NCBI RefSeq assembly: GCF_055900595.2
Contig: NZ_CM148325.1
DNA length: 64,000 nucleotides
Strand: one strand, 5' to 3'
The position numbers and the translations under genes were made by a program. The notes under the pieces were generated by a model, which was not told the origin of the DNA, ran no database searches, and saw only the letters and a program-made list of their open reading frames with translations. Shown one piece after another: positions 13,305 to 16,230 of this stretch (positions are counted from its first letter, which is position 1; each line of letters opens with the position of its first letter).

Positions 13305-13727
13305 TTATTCCCGACCGCCGCGCACTTTGCCGCGCAACGCCTTCACGCTTGATTTTTGTGCTTTCGATACCAGCCTGCGCTCTTTTGATGCGCGGGTAGG
13401 TCGTGTCGGTCGTCGGGCTTTTTGTTCTGTTGTTAATTCTTTAATCACTGCCACCAGCCGAGCCAGCGCCGCTTCGCGGTTCAGTTCCTGGCTGCGGTAT
13501 TCCTGTGCCTTGATGACTATCACTCCATCGCTGCTAATCAGATGATGGCTGGCAGCGAGCAGGCGCTCTTTGTAATACTCTGGCAGGCTGGACGCTCGAA
13601 TGTCAAAACGCAGATGAATAGCCGTTGAGGTCTTATTCACATGCTGTCCGCCCGCGCCCTGTGCACGAATAGCAGTGATCTCAAACTCACCATCGGGGAT
13701 AGCAACATGTCGGGAAATCATAATCAT
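13305..13727 (-). CDS. arfB: Ribosome-rescue peptidyl-tRNA hydrolase ArfB
   Basis: 140-aa ORF with GGQ motif ([10 protein letters not shown]) and basic C-terminal tail. Confidence 0.94.
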
Positions 13728-14269
13728 GAAGGTTGTTGCCAGGCGATTAAGTTTACTTCCAGATTATTCTTATCATCCGATAACCAAATCACCCCATCCT
13801 GAATCGTTGCCTGCAGCGTCATGGTACGATCGGCAAAGGCGCTCACTTTTGCCAGTTGCTCGTCGTCCAGATACCAGACAGAAAGATTGGCAAACTGCGC
13901 ACATTTGCTCTGATTTTGCTGCCACCAGATTTGCGCCGCCCGACTATTATAGGCAAACAGCGCCACTTCTGCGGCCTGGGTGCAGGCTTTCTTAATCCGC
14001 CGCTCATCCGGCAATCCCAGTTCAATCCACAAATCAATGCCCAGATGATCATTACGCAGCCACGCTTCCGGCTCATCATCGGCACACAAACCTCGGGTAA
14101 ATTGCAGACGTTCATCAGCATATTTCAGCCACGCCAGCAAGCGCAGCATCATGCGCTCCTGGGTTTCTGAAGGATGGCGCGCCAGCGTCAGAGAGGCATC
14201 GAGAAACTGGTTGCGGTCGAGATCGGCCACATTAACCGTCGCTTTATAAATTGTCGCTTTAAGCGCCAT
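13724..14269 (-). CDS. yaeQ: YaeQ family protein (PD-(D/E)XK fold)
   Basis: 181-aa ORF overlapping the arfB start by 4 nt; synteny yaeQ-arfB-nlpE. Confidence 0.9.
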
Positions 14270-14434
14270 AAGAAAACTCCTTTCGAATCAGGAGGCCATT
14301 GTAACGGAATACGTGCAGTTGCGACGCTGATATTGCAGAAATGAGTGTGGTATAGTCACCTTGCGAAACAGAGTTTATCTTCGTAGGCTTAGACTTGCAT
14401 CCACGGTTAAGTCAGAGTGCTGACAGGAGGGCAT

Positions 14435-14635
14435 GTGGAAAAATATTGTGAGTTAATACGCAAGCGGTACGCGGAAATCGCCAGCGGAGACTTAGGATAC
14501 GTTCCGGACGCGCTGGGCTGCGTTTTGAAAGTGCTGAATGAAATGGCTGCCGACGATGCCCTTTCTGAGGCTGTCAGGGAAAAAGCAGCATACGCTGCGG
14601 CAAACTTACTGGTGAGCGATTATGTCAATGAATGA
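14435..14635 (+). CDS. yaeP: UPF0253 small protein YaeP
   Basis: ORF track 14417..14635; a GTG at 14435 is preceded by AGGAGG (14424-14429) and yields the 66-aa protein (M/V)[22 protein letters not shown]... Confidence 0.8.
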
Positions 14636-14882
14636 TACGTATCAACCAATCAATTGTGATGATTACGATAATCTTGAGCTCGCCTGCCAGCATCATTTAA
14701 TGCTGACACTTGAGCTGAAAGATGGCGAAAAACTGCAGGGGAAGGCCAGCGATTTAGTCTCCCGCAAAAATGTGGAATATCTGGTCGTTGAAGCTGCTGG
14801 CGAAACACGCGAGCTACGCCTGGATAAAATTACCAGCTTTAGCCACCCGGAAATTGGTACGGTGGTGGTGAGCGAGTCCTGA
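14628..14882 (+). CDS. rof: Rho-binding antiterminator Rof (YaeO)
   Basis: ORF track 14622..14882; start placed at [36 protein letters not shown] (84 aa); overlaps the yaeP stop by 8 nt. Confidence 0.88.
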
Positions 14883-14891
14883 TTGACTTTC

Positions 14892-14924
14892 GCCGGATGC
14901 GACGTTTGATGCGTCTTATCCGGC
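14892..14924. repeat. REP unit
   Basis: GCCGGATGCGACG...CGTCTTATCCGGC palindromic unit between convergent rof and tilS. Confidence 0.7.
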
Positions 14925-14934
14925 TTTCACTTAA

Positions 14935-16230
14935 CTAAGTGTTTCGCCGCCAGACAAAACTTACGCCATTCTCACCTTCAGCCACACCTTCTTGCGTCAC
15001 AAATACCTCTGCCGCTGCAATCAGCGTTTCGCCATAAAACAGCAGTGGCGTGGTGTCACGCAACCACGGCGGTACGCCCAGTTCCTGCCAGATTTTCTTT
15101 AACTTACGCCCACCATTGCGCCCGACAATATGCAGCAATCCTGGCGCTTTGAAACGCACGCTGACCGCTTCGTCTGCACGCGGAGGGCGAATATCGCCTC
15201 CCGCAGTAAGCTGTACACTTCCCAGCGCCGCCGGTAATTCCAGCGGTTGTAACCACGTCTGCCACGGCACAATGGTTTCGCTTTGCCCAGTGACGGATTT
15301 AATCCACCACAGTTGCGATTGATAGCGGCGGATTTCAAACGCCCCCAAACGTAAACAGGGGGAAGCATCTTCTCGCGCCAGCGCCACTTCCTGCCAGATC
15401 CTCACCAACGCGTCGCGGGAAGGCATCGGTGCATTCTGCCCTGCCAGCCAGCGGCGGATAATCGCCGCGCGACGGGCATCACTCATCGCCAGCATTGGCG
15501 CAATCTGCAGCGTCCCCTGCGGCGTTTGACAGTGTGCTAAATCATCTGCCAGCAGTTCATCCAGCAGGCTCTCTTGCTCAGCACAAAGTGCGGCGCTGCG
15601 GGCCGTTGCTTCGGCAAAATGCGGCCAACGCTGCTGCAATAACGGCACTACGCGTAGGCGCAGGAAGTTACGATCGTATGAGTCGTCCTGATTACTTTCG
15701 TCTTCAATCCAACGTAAACCATGCGCCAACGCCCACTGCTCCAGTTCTCCCCGTGTGCGGGCGAGCAACGGTCGGATCAGCCGCGTTCCGGCAAACTCCG
15801 AGACTTCCGCCATAGCCGAAAGCCCTGCAGGGCCGCTACCACGTTTTAACGCCAGCAGAAACGTTTCACATTGATCGTCGAGATGTTGCGCTGTAACCAG
15901 CACTTCACCAGGTAACAGGGTACGAGCAAATGCCTGATAACGTGCCTGCCGCGCCTGAGCCTCAATACCTAGCCCCTCTTGCGCAAGTTGCACACGCTCA
16001 ACCACCAGCGGCACCTGCCACTGGTGGCAGATGTTCTCGCAATGCATAACCCAGGCATCGGCATTGGCACTTAAACCGTGATGCACATGAATCGCGCGCA
16101 GGGTGACGCCCGGATTTTCCGTCCGCCACTGCACCAACTGATGCAGCAGAACGGTGGAGTCAAGCCCGCCGCTAAAGGCCACCAGAATCTGGCGTGAGAT
16201 GAGAAGTTGTCTATTGAGAGTGAGTGTCAT
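14935..16230 (-). CDS. tilS: tRNA(Ile)-lysidine synthetase
   Basis: 431-aa ORF with PP-loop SGGLDS near N-terminus. Confidence 0.94.

Follow-up and report, generated by a model that had tools for sequence, protein, structure and literature searches.

The small gene yaeP ends inside the start region of rof, and the locus raises the question of where translation of each gene begins, and whether the Rho antagonist Rof is made largely by ribosomes which have just translated yaeP. The window (the whole stretch of DNA analysed, 64,000 nucleotides) carries the E. coli yae locus at positions 13305-16230, as determined from the ORF list and Pfam matches, and is identical to K-12 across the yaeP start region and the yaeP-rof junction. 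The locus is the bicistronic yaeP-rof operon of E. coli, divergent from yaeQ-arfB, and has the same genes, in the same order and with the same yaeP GTG start, as the K-12 operon (yaeP, b4406; rof, b0189). A 631 nt query spanning yaeP-rof found the locus in 5424 of 5426 complete E. coli genomes with 97-99.8% identity, and among the matches listed all are annotated 'yaeP: YaeP family protein' and 'rof: Rho-binding antiterminator'. The arrangement is ordinary, annotated and published, and there is nothing in it which is biologically different from K-12.

As the GTG start, the overlap and the idea of coupling are present in Kohl et al. 2022, Said et al. 2024 and Morita et al. 2022, the finding itself is already known. 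What is added here to the published K-12 operon is a conserved, probable rof start 6 nt further upstream, which gives an overlap of 14 nt, and the conservation of the yaeP GTG itself across families; in contrast to Said et al. 2024, where rof is described without a Shine-Dalgarno (SD) sequence, an invariant GGUGA is found before rof. The explanation as a whole, of a yaeP-rof operon in which yaeP starts at GTG 14435, rof starts at 14622 and the two genes are putatively coupled in translation, is likely to be correct.

Gene products and flanking elements

The features of the locus are collected in Table 1. YaeP matches PF06786 (UPF0253) with a score of 113.3 bits against a cut-off of 27, and Rof (YaeO) exceeds the PF07073 cut-off of 27.6 bits with a score of 101. 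YaeP is identical to residues 1-66 of PDB 5H1N, which is the 66 aa form, and its AlphaFold model (pLDDT 91.6) has three helices, at residues 6-17, 26-39 and 45-60; with homologues of 64-69 aa, this is a family of small three-helix proteins. A fold search with the model returned 5H1N as the top structural match (TM 0.89), and beyond this crystal structure of YaeP itself there were only non-specific helical matches with E > 1. As 5H1N is the only specific match, the search provides no functional lead for YaeP, and YaeP alone is reported to have no phenotype (Morita et al. 2022, PMC9765468). Rof is near-identical to PDB 1SG5, 8W8D and 8PTM, and structures are available for both of its possible lengths, as 1SG5 is the 86 aa form beginning MSMNDTY and 8W8D is the 84 aa form.

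Table 1. Features of the yaeP-rof locus, with their positions in the window.
Feature	Position	Strand	Basis
arfB	13305-13727	-	ORF list; Pfam PF00472
yaeQ	13724-14269	-	ORF list; Pfam PF07152
Candidate yaeP-rof promoter: -35-like CTGATA (14327-14332), 18 nt spacer, extended -10 TGgTATAGT (14348-14356)	14327-14356	+	Consensus scan 9/12 + TG
Conserved yaeP 5' leader block TGCgAAACAGAGTTTATCTTCGTAGGCTTA	14361-14392	+	Nearly invariant in 19-species alignment
Possible small hairpin GUCAG-AGUG-CUGAC adjoining the yaeP SD	14411-14424	+	Conserved stem, variable loop
Upstream in-frame GTG, ORF-track start (72 aa, 14417-14635); probably not the start	14417-14419	+	ORF list
yaeP SD, AGGAGG, with 4 nt spacer (GCAT, 14431-14434) to GTG	14425-14430	+	Sequence; conservation
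Out-of-frame ATG in the ATGTG motif; start of a 7-codon ORF (MWKNIVS*)	14433-14456	+	Sequence
yaeP CDS, GTG start, 66 aa, TGA stop	14435-14635	+	PF06786; RefSeq and K-12 annotation
Ultra-conserved block over the rof initiation region (yaeP codons 58-67, rof codons 1-8)	14606-14645	+	Codon entropy
Candidate long-range helix, 5' arm, which would sequester the rof SD-like element	14609-14619	+	RNAalifold consensus
SD-like GGUGA upstream of rof, pairing with 5'-UCACC-3' in the 16S 3' tail	14611-14615	+	Duplex -7.6 kcal/mol
rof CDS from first ATG, 86 aa (PGAP model); alternative K-12 start ATG 14628, 84 aa	14622-14882	+	PF07073, 101 bits
Candidate long-range helix, 3' arm (rof codons 20-23, L-A-C-Q)	14680-14690	+	RNAalifold consensus
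REP-like palindromic element after the rof stop	14881-14925	.	Weak sub-threshold naRNA4 matches, both strands
tilS	14935-16230	-	ORF list

Upstream of yaeP, the TGnTATAGTC of the candidate promoter is invariant and its CTGATA is conserved in 19 diverse Enterobacterales, and the promoter-like block is kept out to Serratia. An Rfam search of positions 14200-15000, which includes the leader block, gave no family match, and the two sub-threshold naRNA4 matches were found after rof only. These matches are presumably due to a REP element. REP elements have been reported to bracket the yaeP-rof locus (Said et al. 2024, PMC11018626). Expression of the operon in exponential phase is very low.

The start of yaeP

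The original prediction had YaeP starting at a GTG at 14435 behind an AGGAGG, to give a protein of 66 aa, and all of this can be seen in the sequence: the in-frame GTG (14435-14437) opens a frame which encodes 66 aa, begins MEKYCELIR, ends in ...DYVNE and is closed by the TGA at 14633-14635. The gap between the AGGAGG and the GTG had been given as 6 nt and is in fact 4 nt, and the upstream codon at 14417, described there as an ATG, is a GTG in both the sequence and the ORF list. Pairing of the AGGAGG with the 3' end of the 16S rRNA amounts to -10.8 kcal/mol, and the GUG is preceded by at least 4 nt of complementarity at a functional spacing (DtoStart 12), whereas no SD precedes 14417, where the best anti-SD duplex is -4.6 kcal/mol. 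GTG 14435 is the annotated start in both RefSeq/PGAP and K-12; it is at 214125 in K-12 coordinates, where the upstream CTG and GTG are at 214140 and 214143. It is also listed by name in Table 2 of Kohl et al. 2022 (NAR, PMC9841429), as an atGTG site with SD AGGAGG, DtoStart 12 and a predicted ambiguity of 'no', and yaeP abundance is given there as 94.5 ppm.

Conservation of the start was determined across 88 Enterobacterales species, comprising 81 Enterobacteriaceae and seven more distant members of the order. A scan of one genome per species with a six-sequence YaeP alignment yielded 80 loci, all from Enterobacteriaceae, and the seven distant representatives (Serratia, Yersinia, Erwinia, Pectobacterium, Pantoea, Lonsdalea and Rouxiella) were fetched individually. 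The yaeP start codon is GTG in 85 species and ATG in the other three, and is always behind a GGAGG-type SD; among the 81 Enterobacteriaceae 80 have AGGAGG and the remaining one GGGAGG, the spacer being 4 nt throughout, and in all seven distant species the SD is of the GGAGG/GAGG type. The codon at -18, which corresponds to 14417 in the window, is GTG, ATG or TTG in 28 of the 81 Enterobacteriaceae, the stop codon TAG in four (Kosakonia) and some other sense codon in the rest, and one species has a TAA at -3 of the yaeP start. The position of GTG 14435 is thus kept, and that of the alternative in-frame start at -18 is not. The Pfam alignment agrees with this, as PF06786 profile positions 2-65 align to residues 8-71 of the 72 aa ORF, which places the family N-terminus at GTG 14435. 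Based on annotation, Pfam, the starts of homologues, the SD found before the GTG or ATG in 88 of 88 species and the entry of Kohl et al. 2022, the conserved start of yaeP is almost certainly GTG 14435 and not the upstream GTG 14417. Ribosomes would bind the strong AGGAGG and initiate at the GUG to produce the 66 aa three-helix YaeP.

It is extremely unlikely that YaeP, or an isoform of it, starts instead at GTG 14417 or CTG 14420, which would give 72 or 71 aa and make the AGGAGG partly coding. The ORF is open from 14417, a CTG is present at -15 in 72 of 81 species, and in the INRI-seq entries of Hör et al. 2022 the in vitro yaeP peak is assigned to 'CTG -15, in frame' at 71.8 CPM in five of five replicates; by our own arithmetic this peak also fits GTG 14417, at the edge of the 15 +/- 3 nt tolerance. 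INRI-seq is performed with retapamulin in vitro on synthetic transcripts which have only 30 nt of native leader, and as the yaeP transcript begins 30 nt upstream and the peak covers nearly the whole of this artificial 5' end, the CTG -15 call is treated as construct-specific, which it probably is; the in vivo Ribo-RET value for CTG -15 in these entries is 0. The lack of conservation of the -18 codon, the stop codons found in its place and at -3, the absence of an SD before it and the alignment of the family N-terminus, all described above, argue against the longer forms. Conservation of the CTG could be explained by its location in the stem of the hairpin-like element adjoining the SD, the 3' arm of which holds CTG 14420 and the loop of which holds GTG 14417. 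In 45 distinct sequences 91.6% of the cells in this hairpin are paired, and its covariation is no better than that of shuffles. Furthermore, initiation at CTG codons is very inefficient in E. coli. No in vivo start-site or N-terminal entries for yaeP or rof are present in the TRAINSPOTTER or the Salmonella riboproteogenomics supplements.

As the yaeP GTG lies within an ATGTG motif, there is also an out-of-frame ATG at 14433, which was missed in the original prediction. With a spacer of 2 nt (DtoStart 10), this AUG would be little used. The ATG is kept in 76 of 81 species, and at some spacings both frames of an AUGUG site can be used for initiation (Kohl et al. 2022, PMC9841429), so that some ribosomes might start at ATG 14433 and make MWKNIVS, thereby lowering YaeP and hence Rof. 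This is very unlikely, as in the reporters of the same study the 10/12 spacing gave initiation at the GUG only, and the rule that the 3' GUG is used at short spacing applies to yaeP; the listing of yaeP as not ambiguous is the prediction of those authors for the site. The 'AT' may also be kept merely as a spacer.

The yaeP-rof overlap and the rof start codon

Two ATGs are present in the rof frame. The one at 14622-14624 gives a protein of 86 aa (MSMNDTY...) and an overlap of 14 nt with yaeP, and the one at 14628-14630 gives 84 aa and an overlap of 8 nt (14628-14635). PGAP uses ATG 14622, which is 213938 in K-12 coordinates, the curated K-12 and UniProt models use ATG 14628, which is 213932, and an overlap of 8 nt, constant in Enterobacteriaceae, is described by both Said et al. 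2024 (Nat Commun, PMC11018626) and Morita et al. 2022 (mBio, PMC9765468). The original prediction likewise had rof starting at 14628 with an 8 nt overlap; this ATG and this overlap do exist, but the in-frame ATG 14622 had been overlooked, and it is the better conserved of the two. ATG 14622 is kept in all 88 species and ATG 14628 in 83, the latter being replaced by ACG in two Enterobacteriaceae, where the change is silent in YaeP, and by ACG, ATA or ATT in Erwinia, Pantoea and Rouxiella. Because the first ATG is invariant and the second has been lost in five species, the species comparison points to ATG 14622 (the 86 aa form, with the 14 nt overlap) as the conserved, and probably the main, start of rof.

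Both ATGs may be in use in E. coli, and several features are in favour of ATG 14628. It has an A at +4, it is predicted to be the more accessible (unpaired probability 0.72, compared with 0.44 for ATG 14622), and it is nearer to the yaeP stop and would be favoured in a re-initiation scan. The GGTGAG which contains the SD-like element (14611-14616) is invariant in 88 of 88 species; on the DtoStart scale of Kohl et al. 2022 (PMC9841429), on which the optimum for aligned spacing is 13-14, the GGUGA lies, by our own count, at 17 from ATG 14622 and at 23 from ATG 14628. The two starts could be discriminated by changes which are silent in YaeP, namely TAT to TAC, which converts ATG 14622 to ACG, and AAT to AAC, which does the same for ATG 14628. 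The N-terminus of Rof is located in a cavity of Rho, and an N-terminal tag abolishes its activity (Said et al. 2024, PMC11018626); the presence of two additional residues could thus be relevant to studies of its structure and function.

The junction itself is strongly constrained. In the 81 Enterobacteriaceae yaeP ends with the ten codons TTA CTG GTG AGC GAT TAT GTC AAT GAA TGA (14606-14635), and the synonymous-codon entropy of yaeP codons 58-67 is approximately 0, compared with roughly 0.9 bits as is typical of codons 7-57; codons 1-5, 7 and 8 of rof are likewise nearly fixed. These frozen synonymous sites indicate a second function embedded in the end of yaeP, which is the rof initiation region. 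The overlap of the two genes is kept in 88 of 88 species with a length of 11, 14 or 17 nt, and although the exact position of the yaeP stop drifts, it is always 9-15 nt past ATG 14622. The genes therefore have the arrangement of a coupled pair, being on the same strand with a conserved overlap of stop and start.

As bare motifs, neither of the two sequences at these gene ends is found beyond chance in the 64 kb: AGGAGGNNNNGTG occurs once against 0.22 expected, with at least one match in 21 of 100 shuffles, and ATGNNNATGNNTGA occurs twice against 0.64 expected. AGGAGGNNNNGTG and ATGNNNATGNNTGA are regarded as real because they stand at the ends of two ORFs which belong to Pfam families and are near-invariant in 88 species.

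Proposed dependence of rof on yaeP translation

It has been proposed that the overlap allows yaeP to modulate rof expression (Morita et al. 2022, PMC9765468), and a link is also suggested by Said et al. 2024 (PMC11018626). In the mechanism considered here, the last ten yaeP codons would double as the rof initiation region and contain, in order, the weak GGUGA, ATG 14622, ATG 14628 and the yaeP stop, and Rof synthesis would depend largely on ribosomes that have translated yaeP. These ribosomes would open local structure near the weak SD, and their termination would take place 9-12 nt after the start codon of rof; they, or fresh 30S subunits held by the GGUGA, would then re-initiate at rof, by which Rof output would be tied to the modest, GUG-driven translation of yaeP. 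That the overlap is kept in every species despite its varying length fits a need for yaeP translation to end just past the rof start. Judged from these sequence features, translational coupling of yaeP and rof, as suggested in the original prediction, is plausible and is somewhat favoured. Mediation of the coupling by RNA structure is possible, and ribosomes that terminate and then re-initiate would account for it equally well.

A long-range helix between the end of yaeP and rof codons 20-23 is the candidate structure for this (Table 1). It covers GGUGAGCGA, and in 76 distinct sequences 98.6% of its cells are paired. Three events are compensatory, as a C-G pair has become U-A in Yersinia and Lonsdalea, and likewise in Pectobacterium, and all other variation in the 3' arm is C/U opposite G; as the 5' arm is invariant, the covariation rests on these three events. 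Pairing in a register displaced by four bases is almost as good a fit. In a control with shuffled flanking codons, pairing of the SD-like element exceeded chance marginally (fractions 0.04-0.07) for the window, E. albertii and Salmonella arizonae, and did not exceed it for the distant species. Within the minimum-energy stem (GGUGAGCGAUUAU with AUAAUC...GCUCGCC, z = -1.48), the GAUUAU:AUAAUC part was rejected, given the free synonymous variation of rof codons 16-19.

The alternative is that rof is translated independently, with 30S subunits binding the GGUGA and starting at ATG 14622 (or 14628), in which case the overlap would be compact packing and the frozen sites would be an embedded ribosome-binding site. 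Indeed, the GGUGA, the duplex of which has -7.6 kcal/mol, keeps the same distance to ATG 14622 in all 88 species, and rof alone on a plasmid is active and toxic (Morita et al. 2022, PMC9765468). According to the INRI-seq entries of Hör et al. 2022, initiation at both ATGs is also seen in the PURE system with the start region of rof in isolation, the annotated ATG yielding 8-13 CPM and the -6 ATG 7.9. These signals are, however, weak compared with the 74 CPM of the transcript, whereas in the same entries the peaks of the neighbouring genes yaeR and nlpE approximate transcript abundance, and the in vivo Ribo-RET value given there for rof is 0. Moreover, the aligned spacing of 17 exceeds the optimum of Kohl et al., the SD-like element is predicted to be mostly base-paired, and the yaeP stop stays within 9-15 nt of ATG 14622, which suggests that nearby termination matters. 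Independent translation of rof is therefore considered unlikely, although it is by some distance the most credible of the alternatives considered here.

Textbook examples of translationally coupled overlapping pairs are trpE-trpD and trpB-trpA. The yaeP-rof pair is similar to these in that the genes are neighbours on the same strand, stop and start overlap, and a weak downstream ribosome-binding site lies inside the upstream gene. The same locus contains another overlapping pair, yaeQ-arfB, which shares 4 nt (ATGA). Unlike the usual coupled pairs, where overlaps of 1 or 4 nt are commonest, yaeP and rof overlap by 14 (or 8) nt, and there are two candidate start codons.

A further and rather doubtful suggestion is that the yaeP frame serves mainly as a conserved gate on the translation of Rof, a toxic inhibitor of Rho, with the GUG kept by selection where rof is attached, and with the leader and the frozen, possibly folded, start region setting, and perhaps regulating, the number of ribosomes which reach rof. 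It is offered in view of the start codons, as yaeP has GTG in 85 of the 88 species where it is linked to rof, and distant YaeP homologues which are not linked to rof have ATG at the aligned start position in five of five cases. If this were true, coupling might fix the ratio of YaeP to Rof, provided that YaeP is a partner or antagonist of Rof, and Rho activity and Rof synthesis could be joined in a feedback loop, because poorly translated mRNA is a target of Rho.

For the coupled operon favoured here, the species comparison supports an 86 aa Rof over the 84 aa K-12/UniProt model. Because Rof is an inhibitor of Rho, an essential termination factor, and its overproduction is toxic, the means by which its synthesis is kept low and conditional are of interest, and the arrangement of these two genes bears on them.

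The yaeP start region and its linkage to rof

Where rof overlaps the 3' end of yaeP, the yaeP gene starts with GTG in 85 of 88 species (loci L003-L095; position 14435 in the window), and all five of the fetched YaeP homologues without rof downstream start with ATG. The choice of GTG or ATG is associated with rof linkage (Fisher p ~1e-6), with the rof-linked genes all belonging to one clade; as they are confined in this way, the association in these sequences may represent only a single evolutionary event.

An out-of-frame ATG overlaps the GTG (ATGTG) and is retained in 76 of 81 species; it opens a short ORF, and published spacing rules predict that it is unused. In INRI-seq (in vitro start mapping on synthetic transcripts with a 30 nt leader; Hör et al. 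2022), the yaeP start region carries a strong ribosome peak (71.8 CPM, 5/5 replicates), which that study attributes to a CTG codon in frame with the GTG and 15 nt before it (K-12 ~214140, 14420 in the window). In vivo Ribo-RET shows no counterpart of this CTG peak, and the shortness of the synthetic leader may account for it.

Features of the yaeP-rof locus and of loci compared
Feature	Position or loci	Detail
yaeQ/arfB overlap (opposite strand)	13724-13727	4 nt, ATGA
Leader block	14361-14392	between extended -10 and SD
ORF from out-of-frame ATG	14433-14456	7 codons, MWKNIVS*
Local hairpin GCAGC-AUAC-GCUGC	14584-14599	within yaeP Ala-Ala-Tyr-Ala-Ala codons
Rof residue 40 (86-aa form)	14739-14741	KLQGKAS in this strain
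REP-like palindrome	14881-14925	directly 3' of rof stop
yaeP homologue/DUF4250 overlap	L086, 1704-1710	TAATG
Cytochrome c gene	L084, L087, L088, L090, L092	Serratia, Yersinia, Erwinia, Pantoea, Rouxiella

Conserved elements and an apparent YaeP-like repeat protein

The leader block, TGCgAAACAGAGTTTATCTTCGTAGGCTTA, is almost unchanged in 18 Enterobacteriaceae genera, with part of it kept in Serratia, and it matched none of the Rfam families. Within the yaeP hairpin, one pair between third codon positions occurs as four types (GU, AU, CG and GC) and is paired in 82% of 76 sequences; the hairpin may be genuine, or may be a by-product of repeated GCN codons. Nine stretches of P0136, a protein of 1134 aa in the representative library, match YaeP residues 23-54 (E = 1.2e-9), and it looks like a repeat protein made of YaeP-like units.

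The rof flank and neighbouring genes

Rof residue 40 is Gly in this strain but Ala in K-12 and in the PDB sequences (KLQAKAS). On both strands, the palindrome following rof matched the naRNA4 family below threshold; we interpret it as a REP element. No site resembling an intrinsic terminator was found 3' of rof on the + strand. In five genera rof and tilS are separated by a small cytochrome c gene (~102-110 aa, PF00034/PF13442), which the E. coli window lacks.

The divergent yae locus contains two overlapping pairs, yaeQ/arfB being the second, and Said et al. likewise noted that overlap. In L086, which carries a distant yaeP homologue with no rof nearby, the stop of this homologue overlaps the start of a DUF4250 gene; YaeP-family genes are therefore located directly upstream of partners that differ between lineages.
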